Shown here: positions 10,802 to 40,709 of the stretch, in pieces | How positions within the stretch are numbered: position 1 is the first letter of the stretch | Layout of the letters: every line of letters begins with the position of its first letter | Virus record (IMG/VR): IMGVR_UViG_3300042868_005520 | Span: 49,198-113,197 of that record | DNA from: a virus | DNA: 64,000 nucleotides | Direction: 5' to 3' (one strand) | The notes under the pieces: generated by a model | What the model was told of the DNA's origin: nothing | Databases searched by the model: none | What the model saw: the letters and a program-made list of their open reading frames with translations, nothing else | Program-made: the position numbers and the translations under genes

Positions 10802-10845
10802 AAAATCTAGACATTTTTACTCGACAGCCTCTTCTAAATAATAGT

Positions 10846-13077: not shown

Positions 13078-13260
13078 TTATTTAGGCTTCATCTTCTTCC
13101 TACGAGCAATATTTGATTTGAGTCTTGGGTTGCCAGGCGGCATATCAGGAGGCAAACCTGCAATGCTGCCGCCTCCTGCGGTATTTGTTGGTGGTGGCGA
13201 TGCCATTGGGGGTGGAATTTCTTCGGAAATAAACTTTGAGAATTTTTTGATTGTAGACAT
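13078..13260 (-). CDS. small probable internal head protein
   Basis: KKFSKFISEE leader, PTNTAGGGSIAGL motif, basic tail. Confidence 0.6.
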   Translation of the reverse strand: MSTIKKFSKFISEEIPPPMASPPPTNTAGGGSIAGLPPDMPPGNPRLKSNIARRKKMKPK

Positions 13261-13268
13261 GGTTTCCT

Positions 13269-16200
13269 TTATACGATGGTGTAAACAGGTGGAACTGCGG
13301 ACTTGGTGAGTAGCCATGCTCCTCTTACTCCGTTTGGAGCCACACCATGATAGTCAGTAGCAATATCGTCTATCGTGATGGTGAGTGGAATATCTGAGCG
13401 AGCACTTTGAGCCAACACGATTCTTTCTCCAATAAGACCAGGACGAACCGTGAGTCTCCATGCGTACAGTCCTGCGTTTGCGCCAGATAGCAATGGAGCA
13501 CCCGAAACAATCACTTGATCATTTAGTTGTGGATAGTCTATGATACGCGGAGGACCGCATTTACTATTACCTGATATAATTCTCCAATTGTTCAATGCAG
13601 TATGAACCAATTTAGCATCGCCGTCCAATTTTCCTCTAGGATCAGGAGAAAGTGCAGCGTAGGTGGAATCACACCATACAGCAAGAGGACCTGCTCCTGC
13701 TAGTATAAGATGATAATTCAGTTCCCACCAATATCTACGATCATCGGCAAATCCACCATCTGTCCAATACGGAGTGGTTATCCACGGAGTAAATCTCTTC
13801 CACAAATCAGGAGACGCTCGTTGTGCACTTCGTATAGTTCTCATTTCGATCATGAATCCCAAGAAGCCCATGTTGTTTCGGGCTTCTTCCACCTCAATGG
13901 CGGCTCCTTCTACTCCTGAAACACCAATAGGTCCGTGTAGACGAATATACACCTTTCCACCAACACCAAGATTTCCTGCCGTTACATACGATGCAATCGT
14001 AATTCCTCTTCCACCTACCCATAGAATATCGGTAGGAGAATATCTAAAGCCCTTCCATGCAGTAATTCCTGTATCTGTAGCAGAGAAAGCGGCTGCGGCA
14101 GAGCGTCCCTCACCAAGTGAGAGTGTTACTCCGTAATCGTACTTTGATACTCCTGCCAATCCTGTTTTGTGATAGAATCGCACAGTATCATTAACGGGAG
14201 TGTAGTCGTAGCCTGTTCGGTTACCATCATACGAATTTCCATTGAAGAAATATTTTTGTAAAAAGTTTGTTGGGTTGGGGTAATACGCTGCCAACTTTCC
14301 AGGATTAGCCCCTGCACTGTCTGCTTTAGAACCAACATACGCGTAGAAGTTTGGGCAAATAAGATCTTTAGGACCAGGAGGAGGACTGTAAGTTGGATCG
14401 GAGTTTCCACTTGAATTAAACAGAATGTCTCCTATAGTACTGTGCTGTCTATAGTAATTTCCTGCACTCAGTCCCATATCGCGTAGGGTGTTGTACACTA
14501 GATTTCTGTAGTGTCCACTCTCAGTTAGTTCTCGCATTGTGCCATCCCATGCCATTTGAACATAAATTTGAGAGATATTTTCAGGATTTAGTTGTCCTAA
14601 ATCTCCACCAAGGTATGAAGTAGGCAAGTAATTGGTTGCAGAAGCAGAAAGCCGTGAGTCTTTGTATTTTCCGCCTCCACCGAAACAAGCACCAGCAACA
14701 TACGCAATTTCTATTGCTTCAGAAACAGATCCCACGGTTGATCCTACACCTTTATATTTTCCAAAAGTTGATAAGAGTCCGTTGTATATCTCCATGAAAC
14801 GAGAATTGAATGTATGAGAAGCATCCGTGGTTATTCCTGACGGATGGAACTTATAAGTGGTCATTCGAGGATCGTTTGCCAGTGCTCTCAGAAGATCGGG
14901 ATCCACTGCATTGATTGGTCCTGTGTACCCTGCGGAAACTCCAAGATCATCGTACAGGAATGACAGGGTGAATCCATTTGGATTGGCAGCAGGATTATTG
15001 TATCCGAATGTACCACCGTAGCCAGTGTATCCTGATGCTCTAGTCCATCTCTTTCGTGGAACGCCATCACCCACTCCGAAGTAATACAGAGTATGATAGT
15101 CTGAATTTTCGGCATCATCAATAATGTAATTGATTGGTGTTGGTACAATATTTCCTACGGTACGATCTCCAATTACTCCAGCAGAAATACCGTTTACTAA
15201 ATCTACCATTACACTTTTAAGATAAGCGGCTTGTTCATCACAGAACAGAGAAGGCATTTTTCTTCCGCTTAGTAAGGTTGCTCCTGGTATTACAAAAGCA
15301 CTCTCTACTGTAAAACCTGCTCCTATACTTTTTGTAAATGTTGACGCGCTTACTAGAGGAATTCGCTTGAACTGTCCAGCAAATGCTGTTGCACCTTCCG
15401 CAGCAACATATAATCGTTCTGTGGAGGTAAAGTGTATGGTGTCGTTGAATTGCAGAGTAAATCCTGCTACTCCTCCCCATGCTGTGATTCCTGTGTCGTC
15501 AACAGCAAGTGCAGATTGCAGAGTGATTCCTGTGTACAGAGTAATACCAGGAAATGATGAGGCTGCTCCAAACTTATTGTATGTAACATATTCGTGAGCA
15601 ATTGTTCGTGCGTCTGGACTCATGGTTCTACCAAATACCGCAGTAGTTGCTGCCGCAGTGGAACCGTAGCCTGTCCATCCCAATCCGTAATTTACTCCGT
15701 CCGTAGTGTTTGCCCAATACTGATGCACAGCATGATATGCTCGTTCGTAGTTTCCGTCTTTGTTCATGACAGGAATAAGATTTGGCAAGAATCGTGGATA
15801 TAAACACCGTCTGGATGGAGGAACATTTTTAAGGCGGTCAATTATTCTCCACTTTAAGCGATCAGACACAACAGACCCACCCAGATGTTTATGCAAACTA
15901 TTTTCTATAGCACTGGATTCGTATGGAATAACAAGCGGAGCCGCCGAAAGTATTCCTGCCGCTACAGCAGATTGTGAATTGGCAAGTGGATAGTTATCAA
16001 AATTACCAGGAAGATCATATCCAACACCAGTGTGAGCCTTTCCGTAATCAATATCAATCCAGTTTGCACTCCACACTGCATAGTCGGCTGATGTACTAGG
16101 AGAACTCAAAGAATTAATTGTAGGATTGCTCAAGTAGAACGACTGCCCTTGCAGCATTTCACCAAACACCATGAAGTGAATGCGCTCGGTGAGTCCGCTT

Positions 16201-22294: not shown

Positions 22295-23503
22295 TCAAGG
22301 TTTATTCCAAGTCTTTTCTGTGGTCAGATTGCTGCGTGAAAAATCCAATCGGTCTACCAATTTAACTGCATTGTTGCTCAAGCGGTCGATTGCAACAAAT
22401 CCTTCAGGAGTAGTAACTCGATATCCGCTCTTGTCCTTGATAAAGGTTCCTACGCCTGTTTGCATGGAAGCCATCTTCTGAACAATTGTGAGTTTCAACT
22501 GAGCCAGTGCATTATGTAGTGCAAAAACACGAGCAAGTTGGTTTCTGTTGTTGCGAACCCAATCAATAGATGGAGTAGTTTTTGTGCTTGCTACTTTGCG
22601 TTTGCCTTGTGCGCGGTCAAGCATGAATTGCAGGAGTTGATTCACATCAGCATGAGAAGTAGCAACTCCTCCACGCACCAATCCGTTGATGTAGGTCTTG
22701 ATTTCTATCTTTACTCCCTCGTTCTTGCCAATGCCGTTCAAGACAACACGCAAGTCAGCAGCAGTCTTGGTAAGACTAGCAATAGAGTTTTCAATTGTGC
22801 TGCGTTCCGATGGGGAGAATAGTCCTGATCCGTTTGCAAACTTCATTGTGGCGTTATCAAACCAAACATCCTTTACTTTTTTCATGTAACTAATATCGGG
22901 ATTGAATCGTGCAGTCATGGTGGCGATTGATTCGCCCTCGTATGCGGTATGGAACACAATGCCAATCTTTGCTGCTGCCATGCGTGTTCCCAAATCACTT
23001 TTTGGATCCACGGCGTATTTGATTGTGTTCGGCTGAAAGGTAAGGTAACTCTTGCCGTCAATGAGTTCCCGCTGTTTTGATTCCCCATCGAACATCATGT
23101 CGCCTTGCAGCACACCACGAATACCAAGTTTGGAAAAATGCTTTAGCGCAAGTTTAAGTTTTAAGTTCAATCCCTCTACGGGATGGTTGGCATCAATATC
23201 TGAATTGGTAAAGTTCAATTTGGGAGTCACATTGAACACACTCTTTGTGCCAACAAAAAATCGACCGCTTTGGGGGTCGATTCCACAAATAATGGCGGGT
23301 GCGCCATCCCACTTTACCGTGATGTCGTATGCACTAGGAGCGTTCGCTGTGAGAGCCTCCACAACGCCCCGTAAAGCCTTTATGGCGCGTCCGAACCCTG
23401 CGTAGCCGCTGTTGAGGATCTCGTCCTCAAGATGCTCCAAATGGACATTCTTTCCACTTGATTTTTTAAATGCTTCGACTAGGTGTTCGGTAAATGCTCT
23501 CAT
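22295..23503 (-). CDS. DUF6267-like conserved T4-like protein with capsid-targeting-like leader
   Basis: KNVHLEHLED, TVKWDGAPA, QGD, PEGFV, KLVDRLDFS; MRAFTEHLVE. Confidence 0.7.
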   Translation of the reverse strand: MRAFTEHLVEAFKKSSGKNVHLEHLEDEILNSGYAGFGRAIKALRGVVEALTANAPSAYDITVKWDGAPAIICGIDPQSGRFFVGTKSVFNVTPKLNFTNSDIDANHPVEGLNLKLKLALKHFSKLGIRGVLQGDMMFDGESKQRELIDGKSYLTFQPNTIKYAVDPKSDLGTRMAAAKIGIVFHTAYEGESIATMTARFNPDISYMKKVKDVWFDNATMKFANGSGLFSPSERSTIENSIASLTKTAADLRVVLNGIGKNEGVKIEIKTYINGLVRGGVATSHADVNQLLQFMLDRAQGKRKVASTKTTPSIDWVRNNRNQLARVFALHNALAQLKLTIVQKMASMQTGVGTFIKDKSGYRVTTPEGFVAIDRLSNNAVKLVDRLDFSRSNLTTEKTWNKP

Positions 23504-27001: not shown

Positions 27002-29329
27002 TCACTTCTTTGCTTGGGCATCCGTCTTCTTGTTCATAGTTTCGCGTTGCTTTACATCAACCTTCCACAAATCCCAATCAGATAGTTTTCGATTTTGTGG
27101 CATCTTGGATTCCGTTTCAGTAATGCAGATCATACCAACATCGGTAAAGTCCGCAGACTCCCAAATCATATCATTGCCACGATCAAGCACCATGCGGCGG
27201 GTCTTTTTATTTATGATCTGCAAGCCAGTACCTGCAACATTCAGTTCTACTTGATTAGCACCCATCATAAACACAACGGATCCCATTACGCGAGTCTTCT
27301 TGATCTTGACAGAAGTTTCCTTGCCGTCCTTCTTGCCGTAAATTTCAAAGGTTGTTCCCTCTGGCTTCTTGTTTGCAAGTGCAACTAGATCAGCAGCAGT
27401 CTTTTCGTTCTTCGCGATTGTGTTTCCTGCAACAGCATCACGAGTTACCTGTGATGCAACGCTTGCAATCTGTTTGCCGTGTGAATCTGAGCGGTTGGTT
27501 CCTCTACCAATACGAGCACCCACACCAAATGTATCGGGAGCGTCTCCCTCGATCTTTGGCTTCTTCATCTTTGGCTTTGCCGCAGCCTCGGAAAGACTAT
27601 CGTGGTACGCATTGAAACTTGTCATTACCGCACTCACGCTTTGATTCTCGCGTCCCATCAATTTGGAAACCTTGTGCTTCTTGAGGATCTGCTTGATCTT
27701 GGCTTCCTGTTGGGCAGGAGTCATACTGTTCTCTGCCTCTAGATTCATTACCTTCTTCAAGTCTTCAATCGCCCCATCAGGAAGAGCGTAGATCCAGTCT
27801 TCAAGAGCAGCCTTCATGCCACCTTCATTCAACTTTACAGAAACAGATTCGTGAAGTGATTGTGTGATACGACTGATACGACCGCTTCCGAACTTGCTCA
27901 TGTGATATCCTTCTGTCTTTGCCTTGGGCTTTTCTTTGATTGCTTCACCACCACGGGTCTGACTCATCAGCCCCACACTCTTCTGAAATCCATTAGAGAA
28001 CTTAATCATGTCTTCCACAGCAACAGGCTTACCACCTTTAGTAATGGTTCGCGTCTTCATCGTGGTGTTTGCACCGCTTCCGTTTGCAATATCCATTGCA
28101 CACTGTGCAGCCCAACGGTGGTGTCCGTCAATAACATAACCGTCACTCACATAAATTGGTTCAAGAAGGCGCGATGCTGCTTTGCCGTAGTTCGTGGGAT
28201 CCGCTGCGGCAGCAGCAAGAGTTCCGTACATTCCTGCAACCTTCTCACCTTTCAATTGACCTTGAATTGGTTTTAGTGAAGTCACATCTACTTCTTCTTC
28301 CTTTACCTCGTATCCCGAATCTTCAAGAGCCTTACGGTACTCTTTTTCCATATTGATTTCACTCTTCAAGTCTTCGGGTGTTACTTGATCAGGAGTAGTG
28401 TACCCCTTGCTTGCCATGAGAGCCTTGTACGCAACCGATTCGGTATTCTTCGGATCAACCTGTGAAGAAAACTGTGGCATCTCTTCGCGAGGAATACCCT
28501 TGGTGACTTTTTCCTTTGTCTTTGCGTCAAAGCAGAATCCAATATGTGAGAATACTTCCGAGCACAATTCAAAATCGTATGCAGTTTGTCCACGCATTGC
28601 CGATAGAGCAGCGTGGTTCAGTTCATCAATAAAGTCGCGTTCTGCTTGTGCATCACCGAATACAGATTCCGAATCATCCTTTGGACCAGCAAGTTCTTTT
28701 TGGTGAATGGCTTTTGCAACCACATTGGCTTTACGAATGTCTGGCTTTGCAGCAGCCTTCTCCGTAGCCTTTGCGTCTTTTGCGAATGCGCCGTCCATTT
28801 TTGTGGTTGGATTCTTTGTGCCAACATTACTTAGTTGCGCTGTTTCGGCATCTAGTGCTTTCGGCGGTTCGTTTGTTTGGCTACTTTGCGGTTGTGCTTG
28901 ATACTTCGGATCAGCGGTTGTCGCTTTCGCTTGGGTGGCGGGAGTTCCTCGTCCATTGGGTTCGGCTGCTGCTGTGGGTTTTCCTGCATTCGACTTTGGT
29001 GCTCCTGTTGCTGAAGGCTTTTGTTCGAATCCGTCCTTGTCCAATTCTACAGACTGTGAAGTATCTCCTGGTTTGTCTACTCGTCCTGCGGGTGCAGACT
29101 TACCTGCAATCCACGCCTTGGCTGTTTCATCTGAATCAAAGTAATCAGTAACTCCGTCTTTGTTCTTGGCTCCCCATGCTCCGCTTGCTGTTTGCCATGT
29201 TTTACCCTTCTCGCGTCCACCTAAAACCCCGCCGAGTTTCTTCTCTGCGGATTTCACTGGCTTTACGGCTGTCTGAACTTCAAGAATAACTGAGTGCAGA
29301 CTTTTATATGGTTCAATGTCCATGTTCAA
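27002..29329 (-). CDS. modular protein with WGAKN mini-domain and ParB/Srx-like domain
   Basis: LKPIQ...YVIDGHHRWAA; LHE, LNE, LSE junctions. Confidence 0.7.
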   Translation of the reverse strand: MNMDIEPYKSLHSVILEVQTAVKPVKSAEKKLGGVLGGREKGKTWQTASGAWGAKNKDGVTDYFDSDETAKAWIAGKSAPAGRVDKPGDTSQSVELDKDGFEQKPSATGAPKSNAGKPTAAAEPNGRGTPATQAKATTADPKYQAQPQSSQTNEPPKALDAETAQLSNVGTKNPTTKMDGAFAKDAKATEKAAAKPDIRKANVVAKAIHQKELAGPKDDSESVFGDAQAERDFIDELNHAALSAMRGQTAYDFELCSEVFSHIGFCFDAKTKEKVTKGIPREEMPQFSSQVDPKNTESVAYKALMASKGYTTPDQVTPEDLKSEINMEKEYRKALEDSGYEVKEEEVDVTSLKPIQGQLKGEKVAGMYGTLAAAAADPTNYGKAASRLLEPIYVSDGYVIDGHHRWAAQCAMDIANGSGANTTMKTRTITKGGKPVAVEDMIKFSNGFQKSVGLMSQTRGGEAIKEKPKAKTEGYHMSKFGSGRISRITQSLHESVSVKLNEGGMKAALEDWIYALPDGAIEDLKKVMNLEAENSMTPAQQEAKIKQILKKHKVSKLMGRENQSVSAVMTSFNAYHDSLSEAAAKPKMKKPKIEGDAPDTFGVGARIGRGTNRSDSHGKQIASVASQVTRDAVAGNTIAKNEKTAADLVALANKKPEGTTFEIYGKKDGKETSVKIKKTRVMGSVVFMMGANQVELNVAGTGLQIINKKTRRMVLDRGNDMIWESADFTDVGMICITETESKMPQNRKLSDWDLWKVDVKQRETMNKKTDAQAKK

Positions 29330-29425
29330 ACTCCAAGAGAAGAAAGTCTAAAATTAAAAGGGGAAGTTGGTGGTGTATTCCACCTTTCCAACTCCCCCTC
29401 TATTGTGTCAATCCAAGTCAAACTA

Positions 29426-30151
29426 TTAGGAAACAGTCCAAGTACCACTACCACCCGCTGGAGAGGTGTAGTAGATGGCTGCGGTGAATCCGTTATTCAC
29501 CCGCGTTCCTCGTGCATATCCTTCAAAAGTACTTCCTGCAATACCCGAAGTACCGCGAGTCACACCAACGGTAGTGACATCGAATGCTGCACCTGTGGCG
29601 TAAGTACTAGCCACGGTTCCGTTCACACGGAAAGCGGCTGTTCCGCCAGCGGCAGCAGAGGTTGCTCCACCTGCGGCTACAACATAGAATGCATCCGAGA
29701 ACACGATTCGATCATTAGGCTGTACGCTGATTGGTCCACGCGCAGTGAAAGTGTTTCCTGTGGTGTACGAAAGAGCAAGAGTAACACCTGATGCCATTGT
29801 TGCTCGATAGTCTGCACCGTTACGAACAAACTTCTTCAGATAGATACCAACCGTTTGTCCTTCAAGCGCACCAAGAACAATGCCGTTTGCCATTGTTTCG
29901 CCACGAGGATTCTGAAGTGCAGCACGCATTCCTGTTGCGTAGGACGGCAGAACCGTTCCAAACGGAGGAAATCCTGCGCCTGTGGTCAGACCCGTGATGC
30001 CGAAACCCAGTTTTCTGGCGTAGTTCTCAAGCATCTTCGCGCCTGTGGTTCCTGCGGCACCAGTTAAACCATGCGATGTGAATAGATGTGCTAATTGGTT
30101 GCCGAGTTTATTCGCCTTGGCGAGTTCGACTGAATCTGCTGTGAATGCCAT
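29426..30151 (-). CDS. G-x-T-rich virion protein
   Basis: SD AGGAG, TAAATA upstream (~30190), downstream hairpin 29358-29400. Confidence 0.6.
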   Translation of the reverse strand: MAFTADSVELAKANKLGNQLAHLFTSHGLTGAAGTTGAKMLENYARKLGFGITGLTTGAGFPPFGTVLPSYATGMRAALQNPRGETMANGIVLGALEGQTVGIYLKKFVRNGADYRATMASGVTLALSYTTGNTFTARGPISVQPNDRIVFSDAFYVVAAGGATSAAAGGTAAFRVNGTVASTYATGAAFDVTTVGVTRGTSGIAGSTFEGYARGTRVNNGFTAAIYYTSPAGGSGTWTVS

Positions 30152-30235
30152 AAGAGGTTCTCCTTTGAGTGATTTTGGCTTGTCGCTATTATTTAGCATA
30201 CGCGAAGCCTCGCCTCGCGCTAATAGGGTGAATAC

Positions 30236-31084
30236 CTATAGTGTTTTCGTGAACGCCTGTGCTGCTGAACGAGAATCAAAATATTGAACGGAGCCGCTCT
30301 CGTTCTTTGCTCCCCATTTTTTGTTTTCGGTACGCCATACGGTGCCCACAGGGAACTGCTGTCCTGCTGTTGCGGTTCGTCTTACTTCGGGTGGATCAAT
30401 CTTGCCCTGTTTGCCACGGAGTGAAACGGTGGTGCGTACAATCTTTTGCAGTTGGCGGACACGCTTCTCCTGCTCAGGAGTTCGTTTTACCCCTTGCAGT
30501 GCTTCTAGTTCCGCTTCTCCTGAGTCTCCAAGCCACACGCCGCTTTCCATGCCTGACTTGAACCGCTGCATTCTAGTGGGAGTCATGACCTGTATATTCT
30601 TCATTGCTTCTGCGTCTTGCATGAGTCCACGCCAAATACTTTCTCCGCCAGCAGACTGTACGCCACCCGTAACAATGGTGTACCCCTTCCCATTCAGGAA
30701 CTTGTACAGGCTTTGGGCAAGAGAAAATCCAATTGCACTGCTGCGGTACTCTTTTCCTGCCGTAATCATTGTGACTCGCCATCCACTGCTTCCCGTCTTG
30801 CTGCTACGCTTCATTGTGAGTTCCACAGCCACCGTGTTCGTGGGGCGATGCACAACCAATACAACTAGTTGAGGAGCCGCCGTAGTCTTGGACAAGAACA
30901 CACTAAAATCGTTTCCGATTTGTCCAATGCGGCGAACAGCCTTCTTTGTAGACTTGCCTTCATCCTTTGCGTCATCAGCAATATTCTTTAAGTGTTTACT
31001 TGCACGCAAGCCCACACTACCACCAGCCACTCGTGACACGAGTACTGATTCAATCTCATTTAATATTTGAGAGAATGATTTCAT
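30236..31084 (-). CDS. capsid-targeted GNAT-like protein with WGAKN mini-domain
   Basis: MKSFSQILNE; YRSS..G...SLY...TIVTGGVQSAGGESIW GNAT pattern. Confidence 0.65.
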   Translation of the reverse strand: MKSFSQILNEIESVLVSRVAGGSVGLRASKHLKNIADDAKDEGKSTKKAVRRIGQIGNDFSVFLSKTTAAPQLVVLVVHRPTNTVAVELTMKRSSKTGSSGWRVTMITAGKEYRSSAIGFSLAQSLYKFLNGKGYTIVTGGVQSAGGESIWRGLMQDAEAMKNIQVMTPTRMQRFKSGMESGVWLGDSGEAELEALQGVKRTPEQEKRVRQLQKIVRTTVSLRGKQGKIDPPEVRRTATAGQQFPVGTVWRTENKKWGAKNESGSVQYFDSRSAAQAFTKTL

Positions 31085-31590
31085 TTCTTTACCAGTGCGT
31101 ACATCTGCACAAACTGATCGCTTGACTGATCCTTTAATCTATATCCGTGCTGTCCTGCAAATCGCTTTATCATGGAATCGTACAGGCGAACGCGAGAATC
31201 ATTTTTCTTTTTCTCTTTTGCTGCCGTAAAACGAATTACCTCTGGATCGTATTCTTCGATGAGTTGTTTCATAGCCGCAAGGGCTGTTGCGAATATTCGT
31301 CCTGTTTCGGATTTCATCTCCGCTTCCTGATCTGGTGGTGGCGAAGCCTCATCATCCACAGTGAATCCAAACACCCAACCCGCAATGGTGCCCTCGTCTC
31401 TTCGACGATCAGATTCACCGTATCGGATGGGGCGACCATACGCTTCAAACAAATGCGGCTTTCCGTCCACCAACCAGTTTCCGTACCACACCACACCACC
31501 ATGATTCAGGTACAGCGGTGTCTTCACCATTGTTAATGGGATAGGAGTTGAGTTGAAGATTTCTTGAAGATGCTGTCGAAATGCTTTCAT
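31081..31590 (-). CDS. capsid-targeted protein, paralog family (GNAT/DUF6934-like)
   Basis: MKAFRQHLQE; RIFAT...SRVRLYDSMIKRFA..HGY. Confidence 0.65.
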   Translation of the reverse strand: MKAFRQHLQEIFNSTPIPLTMVKTPLYLNHGGVVWYGNWLVDGKPHLFEAYGRPIRYGESDRRRDEGTIAGWVFGFTVDDEASPPPDQEAEMKSETGRIFATALAAMKQLIEEYDPEVIRFTAAKEKKKNDSRVRLYDSMIKRFAGQHGYRLKDQSSDQFVQMYALVKK

Positions 31591-32813
31591 AGTGACTGCC
31601 TCTTGACTTTACCGTGAAGTTGACGATCATATCTATTGGCGCGGTAGTCCATTGGAACATCAACTTCTTTGTTTGCGTTACGGTCGTACTGTGTACGCAC
31701 TCCTCCAACCACAACGGAAAGAATAAGATTTTCTATGAATGCGGTATCACCCAATATAATCTTGGGTAGTTCTTCTTTTGCCTTTACCGATCCAATGTAG
31801 CCCATGAGCATCCAACCTTCAGTTGTTTGAATGCGAACACGCCAACGCCAAACCTTTGCACTGTCTTTCCAATACGGAGAGTCTTTGGACGAACTAGGTG
31901 TGTAGTTTTTACCGTCTATGCGAACTGTTTTGGGAGCATTGAAATTCTTCATGGACTTTACAGGCACACCGTACACAGGATACAACTCTACAATCTTTCC
32001 ACTAATATTAAATGGACGAGCGTAGTACTCCTTCTTTGGACGCGGAATGTCGCCGTGCTCCACTCCTTCGCTCATGCCCCGCCTCCACTTGTTGTTGTCT
32101 TTGGAGCGATTGGTTGCGCGAGTCACGAGTCGAATGTTCTTCTTGCCGTTGTTCAGCGCGTTGCCGTCCTTGTGGTCAATCTCGCGTCCATCGGTGCTTT
32201 TTCCTTCGCGTCCCATCTTGCGAAGAATACGCTTGCGCGATGTTTTCTTTTTCATTGCAATGCGCTGCTTGGGCGTGGGGTTTGCACCACCGTACATCTT
32301 GGCGTACTCTGCTTTGTAGTCGCGGTCTTCTGCAAGTTTAGCCGTGGTCACGGTTCGCTGTTCAGCACGGCGGCGACCGTAAACTTCGGTGTTTGCAATC
32401 TTGTACCCGTACTGCTTGCCGAAACGGCGCATCAGTGCACTGTACACCGCATCGCGCTTGCCTTCGGAGGTCTTGGATATCATGTCTAACTGTTTGGGTA
32501 ATTGATTAAATGTTTCCATGTGCCACTTCAAGAACATCTGCACCGCTTCCACAACTGTAGCCAGTATGCGATACGGCTTTCCTGCGTGTGTGAGTTCGTG
32601 TGAGCCATCCAAGGTGAAATTGATTTCCCACCCTTGGTTAATCTTTGTGATATCAATGTTCAAATACTGTGGTATTCCCAAATACGGGTCAGCATCGGTT
32701 TGTGCTTGGTATGTGATTTCAATTACACTGCTCTGCCATCCAATACGCTTTAGTTCACGCACAGAGAAAGGCTTATCGAATAGTTCGGTAAGGTAGGAGC
32801 GGAAGTCAATCAC
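31587..32813 (-). CDS. capsid-targeted polyprotein: paralog domain + HNH endonuclease + unknown domain
   Basis: MIDFRSYLTE; IDHKDGNALNNGKKNIRLVTRATN; LAE/MSE junctions. Confidence 0.7.
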   Translation of the reverse strand: MIDFRSYLTELFDKPFSVRELKRIGWQSSVIEITYQAQTDADPYLGIPQYLNIDITKINQGWEINFTLDGSHELTHAGKPYRILATVVEAVQMFLKWHMETFNQLPKQLDMISKTSEGKRDAVYSALMRRFGKQYGYKIANTEVYGRRRAEQRTVTTAKLAEDRDYKAEYAKMYGGANPTPKQRIAMKKKTSRKRILRKMGREGKSTDGREIDHKDGNALNNGKKNIRLVTRATNRSKDNNKWRRGMSEGVEHGDIPRPKKEYYARPFNISGKIVELYPVYGVPVKSMKNFNAPKTVRIDGKNYTPSSSKDSPYWKDSAKVWRWRVRIQTTEGWMLMGYIGSVKAKEELPKIILGDTAFIENLILSVVVGGVRTQYDRNANKEVDVPMDYRANRYDRQLHGKVKRQSL

Positions 32814-33289
32814 GCTGCACCTCGCTTTGGCTTTATGCGTTCAAGCACAAACATATTTTCGAAATAGTCTTCTTCGTTCTTAATCAACTTGTATCCGTAC
32901 TGTGGAGCAAACCGCTTGATCATTGCCGTGTACACACGGGATCTTGATGTGGGTCTGTCCTGCTGAAGAGTTCGGTCAAAGTCTTGTTTGCTTGCAGTAA
33001 ATTTAAAGTACTTTGGGCGATCACTTTTTTTCTCCATGAACCGCTTGAACGCATCCATTACTGATGCAAATACTCTTGCGCCATCGCCTTCGGCACGAAT
33101 GCCTGTGTCTCCGTCCACATCAAAGGAAACTATTATAGTTTCTTCGGTGGGATACCTGTTAAAGAGTACTTCAAGTATTCCACCCTTTGCACCCGTATAG
33201 GAGTACCTCTTGCTTGATACGCCAGCCTCTTTCACAAAGGTGAACGGCTCATCAAAGAGTTCGGTGATGTAGGAGCGAAATGCTTTCAT
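32810..33289 (-). CDS. capsid-targeted protein, paralog family
   Basis: MKAFRSYITE; EGDGARVFASVMDAF...SRSRVYTAMIKRFA. Confidence 0.7.
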   Translation of the reverse strand: MKAFRSYITELFDEPFTFVKEAGVSSKRYSYTGAKGGILEVLFNRYPTEETIIVSFDVDGDTGIRAEGDGARVFASVMDAFKRFMEKKSDRPKYFKFTASKQDFDRTLQQDRPTSRSRVYTAMIKRFAPQYGYKLIKNEEDYFENMFVLERIKPKRGAA

Positions 33290-33291
33290 GG

Positions 33292-33792
33292 TTACTCAGA
33301 GAATGCAGGAGAATACTGGTCGCCCAAACCTTTTTTACGAACAATAAAAATCATTACCTTTTTTCTTTCGTTTGACGAACTCAACTCGTATCCGTATTTA
33401 GGGGCAAACCGTTTAATCATTGCGGAGTACACACGCGCTCTTGATGTGGGACGGGTTTCCATGCTAACACTATCCCAGTCTTCTTTGTTTGCACTAAACT
33501 CAAAGTAGTCAGGCTGATTCTTTTTCAAGAACCGCCCAAACGCGTCCATTACTGATGCAAATATTCTTGGGGCATCGCCTTCACCACGAACAGCAATAGA
33601 TCCACCCACATCAAAGTCCACATACACAGAGTCGCCTTGATTGCTGAAGTTTACTTCAAGAGGTCCACCCTCTGCGCCTTTGTACTCGTAGGTCATTGTT
33701 CCTGGCTTTTGCCAGTTTTTATCTGCTGTGGTTTTGACTAGCCTGAACGGCTTGTCAAACATTTCGCGGAGGTGCTGGCGGAATGAATTCAT
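33292..33792 (-). CDS. capsid-targeted protein, paralog family
   Basis: MNSFRQHLRE; EGDAPRIFASVMDAF...SRARVYSAMIKRFA. Confidence 0.7.
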   Translation of the reverse strand: MNSFRQHLREMFDKPFRLVKTTADKNWQKPGTMTYEYKGAEGGPLEVNFSNQGDSVYVDFDVGGSIAVRGEGDAPRIFASVMDAFGRFLKKNQPDYFEFSANKEDWDSVSMETRPTSRARVYSAMIKRFAPKYGYELSSSNERKKVMIFIVRKKGLGDQYSPAFSE

Positions 33793-34361
33793 ATCACGCC
33801 TTCCACATCATTGTCAACCACGGTGTAGCCTGGGAACATACGCGCAAGGTTGTTCATCACGCGGTTCTTGCCCCGTTGAAGCGCACGATCACGCAGCAGA
33901 TTCTCGCCTGTTGCGGCAGAGATAATGGAAACAGTTTTACGAAAGCGATCCACGCGTCCTTGGTAGTCTGTCATGCCGCTGTAGTTGGGTGCCTTCTTCG
34001 CAGCAGCAAGGTATTCAGGAATGTCACCGTGAATCACATCCTGCGCGGTTTCGCTTGGCGGAATTTCGTACACCACAATCTTGCCACCGTCCCACCACCA
34101 CAGCAGCGGCAAGTACGAGCGCAGAGTCTTTACATCACTTGTGGGTGGAAGCCCCCACTTCTCAAGCCAACGCGCATTGGGGTTGTCGTGCCCTGTATCC
34201 GTGTACGATGCGTACTGTTTGCCGTCATAGGTGGTTTCGCCACGCAACCGCTGGAGCGTCTTGGCAGCAATAGTCTTGTAGCCCTTGGGCTTGCGGACAC
34301 CCTTCACGGCTTTGGTGGCAGAGATCACGGCTTCGCGAAGATGTTGACGGAATGTATGCAT
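33789..34361 (-). CDS. capsid-targeted hypothetical protein
   Basis: MHTFRQHLRE; TAAATA 5 nt upstream. Confidence 0.65.
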   Translation of the reverse strand: MHTFRQHLREAVISATKAVKGVRKPKGYKTIAAKTLQRLRGETTYDGKQYASYTDTGHDNPNARWLEKWGLPPTSDVKTLRSYLPLLWWWDGGKIVVYEIPPSETAQDVIHGDIPEYLAAAKKAPNYSGMTDYQGRVDRFRKTVSIISAATGENLLRDRALQRGKNRVMNNLARMFPGYTVVDNDVEGVI

Positions 34362-34375
34362 CTCCATATTTAGCA

Positions 34376-34399
34376 AAAGAAAAACCCCCTTGCGGGGGC
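34376..34399 (-). terminator. terminator
   Basis: Minus strand CCCC-GCAA-GGGG followed by T run. Confidence 0.65.
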
Positions 34400-34406
34400 T
34401 AATCGT

Positions 34407-35144
34407 TTACGAGTTCAGGTACTGAGAGTACCCGTTCTCTAGGAAGATGTTCTTCTCTGTGCGGGGCACCAAACCTATTTCAATAATTGCTGCTTCGGGT
34501 TCGGATCCCACCACATCCCGCACCTCTCGGAGTGCGCTCTTGATGGAGTCACGGGATATGCCTTCAATGATTGGGGAGGGTGAGTTCGCAGAGAACTTTC
34601 GTGCGTACACTTTCAGCCACCCCTTCATGTACGCAAGCCGCTGCACATGGTAGGCAAGATCAATGTACAGTTCCTTGATACGCTGCCCAACGAGTTCGGG
34701 AGTCCAGTCTATTACGATTCCGTCCCGTGAGAACGCTAGTACCCTTCGGGAAGTTAGCCACTCCCCTTCTGCTGCCAGTGCCTTTTTCAATTCTGCTGGC
34801 GAGATGCCGAACCGCTCTGGATGGTTTACTATTTGGGTAACATGGAACTCCCCCTCACCCCCAAAGGTGAACCACGGTTTCGTGGGATGCCACCACCCTG
34901 CATTGGTGCTTGTAGCCCACTGGTAGGGAGCGCGTGAAGGCTTTCGTGCGCCCCGTTCACGCTGATGCCTGGCAAGATCTCGTGCTGCCATCCTTGCCAT
35001 GACTCCACCGTACAGGCGGGTTTGGCGGCGGGAGTACAGCAAGTCCTTACGAGACTGCGGAGCAGTATCACGGGGAGGCGTGTACGCGTTGGGATTGTCC
35101 TGAATCTCTAGCCGCTCGGAGATGTACTGCCTGAACGGAATCAC
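34407..35144 (-). CDS. capsid-targeted hypothetical protein
   Basis: MIPFRQYISE leader. Confidence 0.65.
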   Translation of the reverse strand: MIPFRQYISERLEIQDNPNAYTPPRDTAPQSRKDLLYSRRQTRLYGGVMARMAARDLARHQRERGARKPSRAPYQWATSTNAGWWHPTKPWFTFGGEGEFHVTQIVNHPERFGISPAELKKALAAEGEWLTSRRVLAFSRDGIVIDWTPELVGQRIKELYIDLAYHVQRLAYMKGWLKVYARKFSANSPSPIIEGISRDSIKSALREVRDVVGSEPEAAIIEIGLVPRTEKNIFLENGYSQYLNS

Positions 35145-35512
35145 CCCTCGGATCCCTCGTCTAGTACACTTCCCGCACCCTTGGAGCGGAGCAGTCCACG
35201 AATGTCGGCGAGTTCACGAGCGGCATCCCGATCACCCTTCACCACTAGCCCTTCGTACTTCGTTTTCAATTCACGCAGACGGGTGGTGGTCATCTTCTCT
35301 AGTTGGGCGCGAGTATGGGATTCCTGTACAGGTTTCGCCTTTACGAATTTACCAATAGTCTTGTGTAACTTCTTGTGTGCGGCTTCACCAGCGGCACCAG
35401 GTAATTCTTTTAAGTCTTGGGCTTCTGCTGCCTTGAGTTCTGCCTTTGTGACTTCTTGAACAGTGCGAGTAAAGTCGGGAAGGCGGTCAGTAGTGAATGG
35501 ATTAGGTTTCAT
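35141..35512 (-). CDS. hypothetical protein
   Basis: SD AGGAG; VQE junctions. Confidence 0.6.
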   Translation of the reverse strand: MKPNPFTTDRLPDFTRTVQEVTKAELKAAEAQDLKELPGAAGEAAHKKLHKTIGKFVKAKPVQESHTRAQLEKMTTTRLRELKTKYEGLVVKGDRDAARELADIRGLLRSKGAGSVLDEGSEG

Positions 35513-35729
35513 TTGTACGGTTCTCCTGTGAAATTATGTAGGCGCGTACAGGATCTGATTCCCCACTCCACCGCAGCATACGATTAAAGAATTCACGCCG
35601 CCGCTCGCATCCTGTACAGCCGCTGATCCCCATAGCAGAGGTAAGAGTATGAAGCGCATCACCTAATCCCCGTACAGGAGGCGTTTGAGGAGAAACCGCA
35701 TTAGGAGGTTGTGGAAGAGGATCTGCCAT
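35502..35729 (-). CDS. small GLGD...CxxC protein
   Basis: GLGDALH...GCTGCERRR; TAAATA upstream. Confidence 0.6.
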   Translation of the reverse strand: MADPLPQPPNAVSPQTPPVRGLGDALHTLTSAMGISGCTGCERRREFFNRMLRWSGESDPVRAYIISQENRTNET

Positions 35730-35870
35730 GATTATTTAAAAGTATGCCCCGTGTTTCCCCCACAATACGGTGCCTTTCGAAAGGGTTGAAATAATGGGGG
35801 AAGCCCCTGTATCGCGTGGGGCGGTGTGGGGTGATGTGGGAGTGTACGCGCAAACTATTTTTTCACTGAA

Positions 35871-36158
35871 CTACTGCGCCCCATACTTTCGTCCGCGCAA
35901 TGACGCAGCACGATCTAGATTCTCTCTGTACCTCTGAGGTACACCCGCACCAATTTTTTTAGTTAACTCGCGGAACTGCGCCCCTGGTCCCACAGTGGCA
36001 TCAACTCCTGTCACGGGTGGAGTATTGAACGCACGAGCAATAGATTTTTTCTTACACTTTGCACACTTGCCCTCTAGTGGCAGATCACGGTCTGCAACAG
36101 AGTGAAACTCGTCCCATGAGTGGGTGCATTTAGTACAGGTGTATTCGTATGTGGGCAT
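35871..36158 (-). CDS. FmdB-family zinc-ribbon protein
   Basis: MPTYEYTCTKC...CAKC. Confidence 0.85.
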   Translation of the reverse strand: MPTYEYTCTKCTHSWDEFHSVADRDLPLEGKCAKCKKKSIARAFNTPPVTGVDATVGPGAQFRELTKKIGAGVPQRYRENLDRAASLRGRKYGAQ

Positions 36159-36180
36159 GATATAGATTCTCCTACTGTAT

Positions 36181-36600
36181 TTATCCCTCTTTAGCCAAGC
36201 GTTTCATGTATTTGCGGTGTTCTTTCAGGAGGAAGCACTGTTTAATTGGGAGTTTATACTGGCGACACAGGGCAATAGCCTGTTTCTCAGTGGCTTCCTC
36301 TAGTTTAAAGTAGTCTTTCTCGTTGAACACAGGGTCTTCATCACGCCATTGGATGAAATGGGCGTACTCGTGCACTAAAGTAAAGAGCCATTGGCGTGTG
36401 GAGCGTGAGCCAGTGCCCACTATAAGGGTTCCGCGCTCCCCTGCCTTGTGATCAGGAGACTGAAAGTACCCTTGAACACGGGATCCCCCGCAGTTAACGC
36501 GGAAACCAGTGGACAGCACCACTCGCACATTACATTTTTTGCATTCACGACGAACTAATTTCAGGAATTGCTGTACCCGTGGGTTCTTCATGTAGGACAT
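36181..36600 (-). CDS. HEXXH zinc-metallopeptidase-like protein
   Basis: LVHEYAH followed by LEE. Confidence 0.6.
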   Translation of the reverse strand: MSYMKNPRVQQFLKLVRRECKKCNVRVVLSTGFRVNCGGSRVQGYFQSPDHKAGERGTLIVGTGSRSTRQWLFTLVHEYAHFIQWRDEDPVFNEKDYFKLEEATEKQAIALCRQYKLPIKQCFLLKEHRKYMKRLAKEG

Positions 36601-36853
36601 AAGGCGAATCCTCCTCTCTATGTTGTCGAGTATATTGGAATCATGCGATTTAAATCCAATTAATGTATTCGTGTACTCTAATGCCGTGGATTTCCACGGG
36701 TTTTGGTAGGAATCGCGTTCTCCCTGCGCTCTCACCTGTGAAAAATTGCACAATGTAGGGGGTAAGTGGCAAATAACAGGGTCTGATAATGAAATATTCA
36801 GTATTATTGGACATTCGCCCTGTGAAAAACCCTATTTTTTCACTCCAAACGGG

Positions 36854-36882
36854 TTGTAAAACCCCTATATTTCATGTACAAT
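36854..36882 (+). promoter_or_regulatory. sigma70 promoter, leaderless
   Basis: TTGTAA-17-TACAAT, ATG 6 nt downstream. Confidence 0.7.
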
Positions 36883-36888
36883 TTGGGT

Positions 36889-39258
36889 ATGTCGAATACT
36901 TCGCTCGTCTCTACCTCGTCCGCACCTAATGCCGCCAAGTCTACGCTTGCGCGACTGCTTGCCGCTGAAAATATTACTGTTTCACATGAGCGCGTTGAAA
37001 CCGCGTCATTCGATTTGAAGTCGCGCCAATTGCGTCTGCCTATGTGGTCAGGTGCATCGGTGCAGTTGTACGATATGTTGGTTGGTCACGAAGTGGCTCA
37101 TGCACTTTGGACTCCTGCACAGGGATGGCGTGATGGCATTGATTCCATTACTGCTGCTACGGGTTGCCCTCGCAAGACTGCACAGTCGTATTTGAATATT
37201 GTTGAAGACGCTCGTATTGAGCGGCTCATGCAGCAGAAGTTCCGTGGCTTGCGTTCAGACTTTCTTTCAGGCTACAAGACGCTGAATGATCGCGGCTTCT
37301 TTGGTAATGTTTCAAATCCTAATTCACTGTGCTTTGCTGACCGCGTGAACCTCAATTTTAAATTGGGCGTGTACCTTGGCACCGCTGTGCGCTTTACCGC
37401 TGCCGAAGCCCCGCTTGTTGCTCGTGTTGAAGCACTCACTACTTGGGAAGAGGTTGTTGCTGTGGCTCAGGACATGATTCTGCTTTCACAACAGGAGCAG
37501 GAGCAGAAGGAAGAGCAAGAGCAGAACGAGCAGCCGCAGCCACAGGACAGCACCGAAGACGGCGAAGACGGTGACGCTGATAGTGAAACCACTACTACAG
37601 CACAGGGCGAGACTGAAGCCGAAGGCGAGAACGCCGATGCGGAAGAGTCTACTGTGGGTGATGACTCAGACTCTGATGGCGAAGACGGTGAAGCCACCGA
37701 TGAAGCCGATGACAGTAGCACAGACGGCGAAGGTGGCGAGAGCGGTGCTGGCAAGGGTACGCCGAAGTCCGACAAGACTCCTGCACCAAAGCCCGAAGCC
37801 GAAATGCCAACCACGAACGAGTCTATGGAAAAGGCTTTGAGTGATATGGCTAAGGGTGACGCACATGAGATTGGCGAAGTGGTTCGCGTTGAAGTGCCAG
37901 CGGCAAACTCCACCACTGTGGACTACAAGGCAATCATTCAGATCATGCGCGAGTGCGAAATGGCTCAAGTCATGGGCAAGCCTGTTCGTATCTCGGACTA
38001 CACCACTGCCGCTGTGGCAATGGCAAATGCTTTTAATCGCCGCAAGGCAGCGGATCAGTGGCGCAGAACTTCAACTGCAAAGACGGGTTCATTGGATACT
38101 CTCCGTATGAATCAGTACAAGTGGAATGAAGACATTTTCCGCCGTACCACCCGCATTGCAGACGGCAAGAATCACGGCATCGTGATCATGCTTGATTGGT
38201 CGGGTTCAATGAGCGGCATCATGCAGTCCACTATGGGGCAGTTGTTTATTCTTGCAGACTTCTGCCGCAAGACGGGTGTGCCGTTCGAAGTGTACGCGTT
38301 CACTGATGGCTTGTTCTCGAATCTCAAGGAGCACTATTCACAGGCGGCTCAGGACGAGCGCAATGCAAAGGATCGTGACGAGGCAGCAGCAGCGGATAAG
38401 CGTACTACAAATGTTACGCGCATCACTATGCTCAATCTCCTGTCAAGCCGCATGAGCGGTGCAGACTACGAAGCCATGAAGTCGTGCCTGTGGAATTGGC
38501 GCAGAATGGGTTCGGTTGATCACCGCTTTGCACTGAACGGTACGCCAACCACCTCGGCACTTATTGCTGGCGCAGATTTGGTTTCTGCATTCATTAAGCG
38601 TACAGGTGTGCAGATTGCCCATACGATTGTTCTCACTGATGGTGAGCCAACGGATCAGATTCGTTTCAACGGCTCCAAGTGGGATCGCGAAACAGGTTCG
38701 TCATGCGCTTCGCACAATCGGATTGTTGTACTGATGGATCCACAGACGGGTGCATCGTATGACCTGAACACCATGTACAAGCGTGGTGCACAGAACAAGT
38801 ACGGCTACTCCACTCAGACTGATGAACTCCACCAGTTTGGATCGGTTGCGATTTCACCGAAGGGTCATACCCACTCAATGATTGCAGTGGACATGATTCG
38901 CCGCCGCACGGGTTCCAAGGTGCATTGGATTGGATTGAATGACGGGTCTTCGCGCACCATTACAGCGGAGCGGTTCAACATGACTGCTGCACCGAAGAGC
39001 GATTGGAAGCGTGATGGTTTCATTCGTGGTGCAGTGGCAGGTTGGGATAGTGCTGTAGTGATTGACGCTTCGCGTTTCATGCGCGAGTCGAACGGCGAAG
39101 TAAGCACCACTGCTCGTAACCTGATGGACAAGGCAGACGAGAAGATGGACAAGGCAACAACGAACCGCGCCCTGACGAATGCATTCATTGATTCGCAGAT
39201 TGCACAGGGATCGCTCCGCACTGTTGCGAATATTGTTGGCGAATATTTGGCTGTTTAA
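36889..39258 (+). CDS. CobT-like metallopeptidase + acidic linker + VWA domain
   Basis: GHEVAH, NIVEDARIE, MIDAS DWSGS, GTPT, TDG. Confidence 0.85.
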   Translation: MSNTSLVSTSSAPNAAKSTLARLLAAENITVSHERVETASFDLKSRQLRLPMWSGASVQLYDMLVGHEVAHALWTPAQGWRDGIDSITAATGCPRKTAQSYLNIVEDARIERLMQQKFRGLRSDFLSGYKTLNDRGFFGNVSNPNSLCFADRVNLNFKLGVYLGTAVRFTAAEAPLVARVEALTTWEEVVAVAQDMILLSQQEQEQKEEQEQNEQPQPQDSTEDGEDGDADSETTTTAQGETEAEGENADAEESTVGDDSDSDGEDGEATDEADDSSTDGEGGESGAGKGTPKSDKTPAPKPEAEMPTTNESMEKALSDMAKGDAHEIGEVVRVEVPAANSTTVDYKAIIQIMRECEMAQVMGKPVRISDYTTAAVAMANAFNRRKAADQWRRTSTAKTGSLDTLRMNQYKWNEDIFRRTTRIADGKNHGIVIMLDWSGSMSGIMQSTMGQLFILADFCRKTGVPFEVYAFTDGLFSNLKEHYSQAAQDERNAKDRDEAAAADKRTTNVTRITMLNLLSSRMSGADYEAMKSCLWNWRRMGSVDHRFALNGTPTTSALIAGADLVSAFIKRTGVQIAHTIVLTDGEPTDQIRFNGSKWDRETGSSCASHNRIVVLMDPQTGASYDLNTMYKRGAQNKYGYSTQTDELHQFGSVAISPKGHTHSMIAVDMIRRRTGSKVHWIGLNDGSSRTITAERFNMTAAPKSDWKRDGFIRGAVAGWDSAVVIDASRFMRESNGEVSTTARNLMDKADEKMDKATTNRALTNAFIDSQIAQGSLRTVANIVGEYLAV

Positions 39259-39365
39259 TAGAATAAATGTAAACCCTCACCCCACAAGGGGTTAAGTACA
39301 GTATTATTGGACACTAATTGTGAAAAAGCCTGTGATCACAGGCAGATTGTGATATAATAAATCTC

Positions 39366-40709
39366 GTGAAGAACTCCTCTTTTATCGTTTCGTCTACCCA
39401 ACACGCCTTTATCGTTGCCGTGCGTCCATACCTCGCGCAACACGGAATCACTGATGCCAAGACAGGCGGCTTGATTCCATTCGCTGCGTTTACTCTTGCT
39501 GCGAAGTCTGCGGGTTACTCTGCTGTTCCTGCATGGTGCATGACCGCAGACCGCAAGAGTGGTCGCGGTGTTTACCGTATCGCTGAACTGTTTGCAACCG
39601 ATTCGCAATTCACCATTACCGAAGTGAAGCGCGGTCGACCAGCAGGTTCAAAGAACCTTGGCAAGACTGCCAAGACTGTTAAGTCTGTTAAATCCATTAA
39701 GTCCACTCTCAAGGAGATTACCGCAAAGACCCCTACCCTCGCTCCTGTTGTGCAGTCATGCACTGCCGTGGCAATGACCACTGGCATTTCCACTGCTGAA
39801 CTCGCTCGTGCAATGTCGCACGGTGAAAGCGAAACCTTTACCCCTGCTGCTGATCCCAACTACATTGCGTGGGGTTACCACAACGAAATCAAGAAGGTGA
39901 TTAAGTCGAAGTCGTTCTGCCCTGTGTTCATCACAGGTATGAGCGGTAACGGCAAGACCACTATGGTGGAGCAGATCTGCGCTGATCTTGATCGTGAATG
40001 CGTTCGCGTGAACTTTACCGCTGCAACGGACGAAGACGAACTGCTTGGTGGTTTCCGTCTTATTGCTGGCGAAACAAAGTTCGTGCCTGGTCCCGTGCTT
40101 GTTGCAATGGAACGCGGTGCTGTTCTTCTGTTGGATGAAGTGGATCTTGGTGGTCACCTCATCATGTGCTTGCAGTCTGTGCTTGAAGGCAAGGGCAAGT
40201 TTATTCCGAAGATCGGCAAGTATGTGCGTCCTGCAAAGGGATTCACGATTGTTGCCACTGCCAATACAAAGGGCAAGGGCAGCGATGACGGTCGATTCGC
40301 AGGAACGAACATTCTTAATGAAGCGTTCTTGGATCGCTTCGCGTTCACCTACGAGCAGGACTATGCAGACCCGAAGATCGAGAAGAAGATTCTCGCGAAG
40401 TTTGCGGGTTCTGTTGGTGTTGAGGACGATGCATTCGTTGAGAATCTCGTGCAGTGGGCTGATATCATTCGCAAGTCGTTCAAGCAACAGGTCGTGAGTG
40501 AAATCATTACGACTCGCCGCTTGCGCGATATCGTGTTTGCGTACTCTGTGTTCGGCTGCAAGATGACTGCCATTCAGCGTTGCGTTGCGCGGTTCGATGA
40601 ATCCACGAAGGATTCGTTCACGCAGTTCTACACAAAGATTGATGCGGACGCACAGATGCCGCAGCCTGTTGATGCTCCTGCTGCGGACTCCACGAAGTGC
40701 CCTTTCTAA
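39366..40709 (+). CDS. cobS: CobS/MoxR-family AAA+ ATPase with N-terminal extension and AT-hook
   Basis: GMSGNGKT, LLLDEVD, ATANTKGKG, EAFLDRF, TRRL. Confidence 0.85.
   Translation: MKNSSFIVSSTQHAFIVAVRPYLAQHGITDAKTGGLIPFAAFTLAAKSAGYSAVPAWCMTADRKSGRGVYRIAELFATDSQFTITEVKRGRPAGSKNLGKTAKTVKSVKSIKSTLKEITAKTPTLAPVVQSCTAVAMTTGISTAELARAMSHGESETFTPAADPNYIAWGYHNEIKKVIKSKSFCPVFITGMSGNGKTTMVEQICADLDRECVRVNFTAATDEDELLGGFRLIAGETKFVPGPVLVAMERGAVLLLDEVDLGGHLIMCLQSVLEGKGKFIPKIGKYVRPAKGFTIVATANTKGKGSDDGRFAGTNILNEAFLDRFAFTYEQDYADPKIEKKILAKFAGSVGVEDDAFVENLVQWADIIRKSFKQQVVSEIITTRRLRDIVFAYSVFGCKMTAIQRCVARFDESTKDSFTQFYTKIDADAQMPQPVDAPAADSTKCPF

Follow-up and report, generated by a model that had tools for sequence, protein, structure and literature searches.

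A variable array of seven leader-bearing genes that probably encode head-packaged proteins in a marine T4-like myovirus

The window analysed here is a stretch of 64,000 nucleotides, the final 64 kb of the 113-kb IMG/VR contig IMGVR_UViG_3300042868_005520, whose completeness is estimated at 62%. Between positions 30236 and 35144 of this window, seven open reading frames follow one another on the minus strand and all begin with M-x-x-F-[RS]-[QS]-[HYI]-[LI]-x-E. This array and the ten-residue leader shared by its products are the subject of the present work. A preliminary description of the DNA had listed seven such N-termini and proposed that they target variable payloads to the capsid; we found the coordinates and the N-terminal sequences to be exactly as it gave them. 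The genes are the following.

30236-31084, minus strand: array gene 1, 282 residues, leader MKSFSQILNE, predicted isoelectric point (pI) of the mature protein 10.3.
31081-31590, minus strand: array gene 2, 169 residues, leader MKAFRQHLQE, GNAT-like paralogue near DUF6934.
31587-32813, minus strand: array gene 3, 408 residues, GTG start, leader MIDFRSYLTE, three modules.
32810-33289, minus strand: array gene 4, 159 residues, leader MKAFRSYITE, GNAT-like paralogue.
33292-33792, minus strand: array gene 5, 166 residues, leader MNSFRQHLRE, GNAT-like paralogue whose structure was modelled.
33789-34361, minus strand: array gene 6, 190 residues, leader MHTFRQHLRE, homologues in the related loci L011-L014.
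34407-35144, minus strand: array gene 7, 245 residues, GTG start, leader MIPFRQYISE, 66 homologue clusters.

The genes are tightly packed: at five of the six junctions, neighbours overlap by 4 bases or are separated by 2 bases. Both genes that start with GTG (3 and 7) have a Shine-Dalgarno-like sequence in front of them. For gene 6, alternative starts exist at TTG 34376 and ATG 34367, but the start at 34361 is supported by the homologues in L013 and L014, which begin directly with MKSFTQHLRE. All seven leaders have F at position 4, H, Y or I at position 7, [LI] at position 8 and E at position 10, such that the ending [LI]-x-E at residue 10, to which attention had been drawn before, is present without exception. 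With the amino-acid composition of the genome as the basis, the combination of [FY] at position 4, [LI] at 8 and E at 10 is expected by chance with a frequency of 0.0006 per gene, or 0.09 times among the 145 genes considered. It was observed eight times, with seven of the genes adjacent to each other. Because four of the seven array genes are paralogues, the number of independent leader-bearing families is about five. Furthermore, the seven 30-nucleotide stretches that encode the leaders differ synonymously (CTT, CTC and TTA for Leu; CGA, CGC, CGT and AGG for Arg; GAA and GAG for Glu; TTC and TTT for Phe), and conservation and selection therefore act at the level of the peptide. The predicted mature proteins, counted from residue 11 to the end, are all basic (pI 8.1-10.3).

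The capsid targeting sequence of T4 is MKTYQEFIAE (PMC8442874), and amber-suppression work on this leader, reviewed in PMC9026906, assigned targeting mainly to residues 4 and 7 and processing to residues 8 and 10. These four functionally mapped positions are kept in all seven array leaders. What the array has in common with the T4 system is a 10-residue N-terminal leader with an aromatic residue at position 4, an aromatic or hydrophobic one at 7, [LI] at 8 and E at 10, together with basic mature proteins, unrelated payloads behind the leader and a head module of gp20, gp21, gp22 and gp23 in the same genome. However, the array leaders differ from the T4 sequence at positions 3, 5, 6 and 9 and carry F instead of Y at position 4. 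The payloads also lack homology to IPI, IPII and IPIII, and searches of Pfam and PHROGs assigned none of the array proteins to an internal-protein family. Moreover, there are seven tagged genes in one array, with others elsewhere, as compared to three internal proteins plus Alt in T4, and the lineage that hosts them is marine, uncultured and known here from sequence alone.

Alt itself offers a second comparison. This packaged ADP-ribosyltransferase of T4 is cut by gp21 at I-T-E6 (MELITE/LFDE, with the slash marking the cut) and at L-T-E619 (PMC5694885). Residues 7-13 of gene 4, ITELFDE, span the predicted cut and are identical to the string around the cut in Alt. The likeness would consist in this shared string and in a short N-terminal propeptide that precedes an enzyme packaged in the head, whereas the array contains no ADP-ribosyltransferase domain.

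Judged by its sequence, the contig is that of a T4-like marine myovirus, and a T4-type head and tail module is located on it upstream of the window. Pfam identified the gp21 prohead protease (Peptidase_S77, E 5.5e-39), the gp22 scaffold (T4_CASP, E 3.7e-57) and Gp23 (E 2e-132) in the genome.

5388-6029 and 6067-7251 (G000, contig upstream of the window): genes for the gp21-type protease and the gp22 scaffold, identified by Pfam.

The gp23 protein is approximately 54% identical to cyanomyovirus gp23s. A blastn search with 29000-36000 of the window against cultured phages gave no match at the DNA level. In an alignment with T4 gp23, L-V-E of the protein found here occupies the column of the T4 maturation site L-T-E65, and the N-terminus of its gp21 has I-T-E6 where T4 gp21 has L-I-E9. 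Since both proteins keep such a site, the [LI]-x-E specificity of the prohead protease is very probably conserved in this phage.

The leader behaves as a portable module. It is the only sequence that genes 1, 6 and 7 share with each other and with a DUF6267 protein encoded elsewhere in the window:

22295-23503, minus strand: DUF6267 ligase-like protein, 402 residues, leader MRAFTEHLVE, Pfam domain from residue 19.

At least five unrelated bodies carry the leader in this phage, and its relatives add NUDIX and cytidylyltransferase payloads. Among the homologues of gene 7 (66 clusters), the leader has either 10 residues (e.g., MKPFRQYITE) or 13 residues (MKDYFQFIRNLHE) and is sometimes doubled, but it always ends in [LI]-x-E with an invariant E, directly before a conserved RLxIxDNPNA. 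Orthologues of the DUF6267 protein in Methylophilales phage Melnitz, L012 and L015 have the leader, whereas those in Syn33 and P-SSM2 start directly at the domain. In cultured phages, the matches of the GNAT-like family are in KVP40-like vibriophages and nearly all of those of DUF6267 in Kyanoviridae, i.e., in T4-related phages. Melnitz (L007), which is cultured, has four consecutive leader-like N-termini at 1914-6427 (MQGFKTFLSE, (L)INFSKYITE, MKKFSELTSELIE and MKKFSEIIE) in a run that includes DUF6267 and cytidylyltransferase-like genes.

An indirect link to actual particles comes from cyanophage S-SM1, for which 41 proteins were detected in purified virions. Among them is T4-GC190, a putative cytidylyltransferase, for which 25 peptide counts were recorded (PMC3037559, Table S8). 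We found that this protein starts with MKKFSAFLNE and that its gene is the only one with a strict leader in a scan of the S-SM1 genome. A neighbour with a 9-residue form, MLSFKELQE, was likewise detected in the virions. In a full-text search of the literature, 'capsid targeting' did not occur together with terms for cyanophages or other marine phages in any paper.

Hypervariability of the locus had been put forward as something to be tested by synteny with related phages, and the comparison of the window with six related loci bears this out, in that gene content varies between conserved flanks while the leader is kept. In the six related contigs, the array comprises 6-12 genes of differing families, nearly all of which bear the leader, and a NUDIX hydrolase is one of the payloads (L013, L014). 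The upstream flank in the relatives consists of a CobT-like gene, a gene for a protein starting with MAYMKNPRV and a zinc-ribbon gene, and the downstream flank of a 241-residue gene starting with MAFTAGSVELAK, followed by a large protein. In L011, where the neighbouring genes are approximately 96% identical, a single chimeric paralogue (1100-1579) replaces genes 5 and 4 (window 32810-33792). Its leader and central loop resemble gene 5 and the remainder is near-identical to gene 4, which indicates recent unequal recombination.

A polymorphic internal-protein locus has been described for T-even phages (Repoila et al. 1994, cited by both PMC3012670 and PMC9026906); its leader is kept between related phages, and it is interpreted as encoding diverse injected proteins. 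The locus described here is like it in that gene content differs among related phages and the leader stays. However, the relatives compared here are more distant (40-96% protein identity) and have other payload families, there is tandem expansion of paralogues, and one payload module is found as part of a fusion as well as on its own.

This module belongs to gene 3. Genes 2, 4 and 5 are paralogous to each other and to residues 1-150 of gene 3, and a profile search with this GNAT-like family yielded 2,787 relatives. Pfam DUF6934 (PF22028, an uncharacterised domain) is matched by 14 of 34 single-domain relatives and also by large multi-domain ones; the four copies in the window stay below the significance threshold for this domain. 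The AlphaFold model of gene 5 (predicted local distance difference test, pLDDT, 86) matched antizyme and GNAT acetyltransferases in Foldseek with E values between 2e-5 and 4e-3, although the TM-scores reached only some 0.4, and the family has an R/T-G-x-G-D-A loop that resembles the acetyl-CoA-binding motif of GNAT enzymes. Only two cultured phages, both KVP40-like vibriophages, were matched by gene 5. A sequence search for solved structures found none for the GNAT-like family or for the N-terminal region of Alt. Homology of the family to residues 1-200 of T4 Alt was considered, but hhalign gave it a probability of 0.9% when 4 sequences were used and of 2% when 34 were used, and the relationship is not established. 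Among the metagenomic relatives of genes 2-5, P0067, P0070, P0071 and P0075 have 1100-1470 residues with 3-5 tandem DUF6934-like domains, and each repeat opens with [LIV]-x-E-[AL]-[FL]-[DN]-x-P-Y. Some of them have matches to GNAT acetyltransferases as well, and P0071 is encoded on a 258-kb contig.

Behind its GNAT-like domain, gene 3 has an HNH domain at residues 205-235 and, at the C-terminus, a third module. The HNH assignment is based on PF13392 HNH_3 (25.6 bits against a curated cut-off of 24.8, E 9e-6) and on matches to PHROG HNH families. The C-terminal module is found as a separate leader-bearing gene in L012 (alignment E 2e-46). The alignment of the two begins at MSE/GVEHG in gene 3 and at FNE/GVEHG in L012, i.e., at a hydrophobic residue, any residue and E before GVEHG in both cases.

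For genes 1, 6 and 7, neither Pfam nor PHROGs gave a family match. Homologues of gene 1 are restricted to copies in close strains and one distant protein of 356 residues, P0221, which starts with MKRFRTQLDE. For gene 6, the ESM Atlas yielded nothing usable. Gene 7 had no tblastn match among cultured phages, and its fold was not recognised by Foldseek (nothing at E <= 0.001) or by VIA-align against 48,161 chains (best Z 3.8). In the AlphaFold model of gene 7, the body is confident, residues 1-15 are disordered and the leader has a pLDDT below 50, which places the leader outside the predicted fold. Taken together, the payloads of this locus appear to be three proteins of unrecognised fold and four GNAT-like domains close to DUF6934, of which the one in gene 3 is joined to an HNH domain and to a further module.

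Signals for the expression of the array were found as follows.

34367-34373, minus strand: CTAAATA late-promoter-like motif, 5 nucleotides upstream of the ATG of gene 6 at 34361.
34383-34400, minus strand: G+C-rich hairpin with a T run behind it, resembling a terminator and situated between genes 7 and 6, with CTAAATA following directly.

The preliminary description had noted a TAAATA late-type motif in front of 34361, and inspection of the minus strand indeed places CTAAATA at 34373-34367, 5 nucleotides before the start. The window has no copy of TATAAATA, the canonical late promoter of T4, and to judge from its distribution CTAAATA is the late-promoter-like motif that this phage uses. The contig has 29 copies, 16 of which lie within 50 nucleotides upstream of a start as compared to 3.3% expected (P ~8e-17), and one of these 16 precedes the gene for gp19. 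CTAAATA is also found ahead of the DUF6267 gene (18 nucleotides upstream) and of the downstream flank gene, and variants with the TAAATA core precede the starts at 35729 and 36158. No sigma-70-type promoter was found on the strand of the array within 29000-37200. Late expression of the array is plausible on these grounds. A second case with a spacing of 5 nucleotides is CTAAATA at 10834-10840 (plus strand) before the ATG at 10846. In T4, transcription from late promoters starts about 6 nucleotides downstream of the motif. If the same distance held for CTAAATA, the messages from 34361 and 10846 would be leaderless or nearly so.

We therefore come to the question of what the locus is. With a probability of roughly 0.72, we interpret 30236-35144 as a variable locus of head-packaged proteins, internal or ejected, of a marine T4-like myovirus. 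Every prediction of a capsid-targeting function that could be checked at the sequence level agreed with it. These concern the presence of gp21, gp22 and gp23, the L-x-E of gp23 at the T4 cleavage position, the four mapped leader positions, the portability of the leader and its varying length or absence among homologues, the basic pI of the mature proteins, the variability of the locus, the late-type promoter motif and the leader-bearing enzyme of S-SM1 virions. By analogy to T4, each product would carry a short N-terminal helix with F4, H/Y7 and L/I8 as its hydrophobic face, and this helix would dock the protein on the gp22 scaffolding core during prohead assembly. After closure of the gp23 shell, gp21 would cut behind E10 of [LI]-x-E and the 10-residue peptide would exit the head, while the basic mature proteins would remain with the DNA and enter the host together with it. 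Core binding, cleavage after E10, presence in the virion, ejection and an action of the payloads in the host are thus steps that we infer from the T4 system.

Several observations weigh against this interpretation. The proteins of this phage are known from their genes alone, and the support from S-SM1 comes from one or two proteins of a different phage, a sample that is too small to be more than a hint. There is a single late-type promoter within the array, and it lies unusually near its ATG. None of the payloads matches a known anti-defence protein, and an anti-defence role of the array, which had been raised as a possibility, is speculation. Furthermore, conservation of the GNAT-like paralogues does not end at E10 but continues as E-L-F-D-x-P-F, the motif [LIV]-x-E-h-F-D-x-P-[YF] also heads internal repeats of large multi-domain relatives, and in the AlphaFold model of gene 5 residues 4-11 are helical at moderate confidence (pLDDT 67). 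The motif in the GNAT-like family could hence be a structural element instead of, or besides, a cleavage site.

These last points lead to the strongest rival, which concerns the GNAT-like family. It holds that the leader is the first helix of a DUF6934-like GNAT-fold family, is not removed, and was spread to neighbouring genes by recombination, without any role in targeting. That four of the seven array genes are paralogous speaks for it, as does the recombination between paralogues documented in L011. The helix in the gene 5 model would fit as well, and so would the extension past residue 10, which as E-L-F-D-x-P-[FY] is conserved in 34 relatives, and the recurrence of the motif at the head of internal repeats in proteins of up to ~1,470 residues. 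However, the unrelated bodies (genes 1, 6 and 7, DUF6267, the NUDIX proteins of L013/L014 and the cytidylyltransferase of S-SM1) share only the part up to E. The leader comes in lengths of 10 or 13 with an invariant terminal [LI]-x-E, and it is present in some orthologues while absent in others. Moreover, the internal repeats keep [LIV]-x-E-h-F-D but not M-K-x-F, as would be expected of a separate N-terminal signal, and T4 Alt is cut within the same I-T-E/L-F-D-E string (PMC5694885). We thus consider this explanation unlikely.

Because that string is a proven gp21 site in Alt, the same observations can also be read the other way round. The DUF6934-like GNAT-fold domain with its cap [LIV]-x-E/h-F-D-x-P-[FY] might be a widespread cargo unit for processing by the prohead protease, and the proteins of 1000-1500 residues with 3-5 repeats might be cargo polyproteins that are cut within the head at each repeat boundary. 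We put this forward as a tentative extension only, which has the odds against it. If it were true, gene 3 would give rise to three injected proteins through cuts at L-A-E (around residue 163) and M-S-E249, and one injected arsenal would be encoded in two ways, by tandem arrays such as this one and by genes with several fused repeats.

Another explanation is that the leader is a tag for some other process, such as recognition by a modifying enzyme or a chaperone, or docking to the tail or baseplate. With a contig estimated to be only 62% complete, the gene for such a partner could be missing. However, there is no radical S-adenosylmethionine gene on the 113-kb contig, and the tag matches the T4 leader at exactly the four mapped positions. 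It furthermore ends in the gp21 cleavage motif that the phage's own gp23 and gp21 carry too, and in cultured phages the GNAT-like family and nearly all DUF6267 matches belong to T4-related phages, all of which makes such a tag a rather improbable account. Finally, an RNA-level element at the 5' ends (for translation initiation, or a regulatory structure), for which the tight coupling through 4-base overlaps might select in the start regions, is very hard to reconcile with leader codons that vary synonymously while the amino acids stay, with GTG as the start of two genes, and with a peptide pattern that is kept in homologues at 40-50% identity.

Capsid targeting as the preferred explanation raises the question which other genes of the window carry the leader. 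Four further sites had been proposed, of which two stand, 23503 as a full match (the DUF6267 protein) and 13260 in the 13-residue form. The other two are partial matches only: 25765 (MKPFKDLRDH) does not have [LI]-x-E at positions 8-10, and 56131 (MKKFTQYLDATALNE) has L-N-E at positions 13-15. In addition, an exonuclease-like protein at 24186 has a looser leader-like start. The neighbouring and leader-like features are listed below.

13078-13260, minus strand: small basic proline-rich open reading frame, 60 residues, 13-residue leader-like start MSTIKKFSKFISE, within the open reading frame 13078-13317.
27002-29323, minus strand: large protein adjoining the array, 773 residues from this ATG, within a 775-residue open reading frame at 27002-29329.
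29426-30151, minus strand: downstream flank gene, conserved, without a leader, likely true start MAFTAD at 30151.
56131-56967, plus strand: S-adenosylmethionine lyase-like protein, family PF23780 (E 1.3e-10) from residue 48.
30245-30340 (gene 1, residues 247-278) and 29113-29206 (775-residue protein, residues 42-73), minus strand: shared 32-residue motif.

In the lyase-like protein, a 47-residue extension that starts with MKKFTQYLDATALNE precedes the family match, and CTAAATA lies 31 nucleotides upstream; it may be a packaged S-adenosylmethionine lyase. The large protein next to the array is a possible further cargo, as its N-terminus MDIEPYKSLHSVILE ends in I-L-E, a trait that relatives keep. 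Pfam gave no match for it, and PHROGs only phrog_2859 (function unknown). It contains the string YVIDGHHRWAA, which is like a ParB or sulfiredoxin-type motif. The 32-residue motif, W..(x)WGAKN..G...YFDS...A.A[FW], is common to the C-terminus of gene 1 and the N-terminal part of this neighbour (BLASTP E 6e-7), and it is found in P0221 too. For the downstream flank gene, the longest open reading frame starts at 30199. However, this ATG overlaps CTAAATA, the one at 30151 has a Shine-Dalgarno sequence (AAAGGAGAA) in front of it, and the proteins of all relatives start with MAFTAG or MPFTAG, such that 30151 is probably the start. On the plus strand, at 36874-40709, a CobT-like gene (phrog_459, labelled peptidase) and a gene for a CobS-like AAA ATPase (phrog_249) are divergent from the cargo cluster. 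A class II-type ribonucleotide reductase is encoded at 8882-10801.

A conserved targeting leader in front of diverse payloads at a polymorphic locus has been known in T-even phages since the 1990s. What would be gained here is therefore not a new principle, but its reach into a distant lineage, together with new payload families and an unusually large, fast-changing array. If the leader works as it does in T4, the injected cargo of marine T4-like phages would be readable directly from their genome sequences. In this lineage, the cargo would be large and quick to turn over, and it would be enzyme-like, with GNAT-like, HNH and DUF6267 ligase-like proteins here and NUDIX proteins in relatives. 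The presence of a cytidylyltransferase in purified S-SM1 particles would thereby be explained. Such a reading of the genomes would yield a defined list of candidate effectors that abundant ocean phages may bring to bear at time zero of infection, be it for host takeover or for counter-defence.

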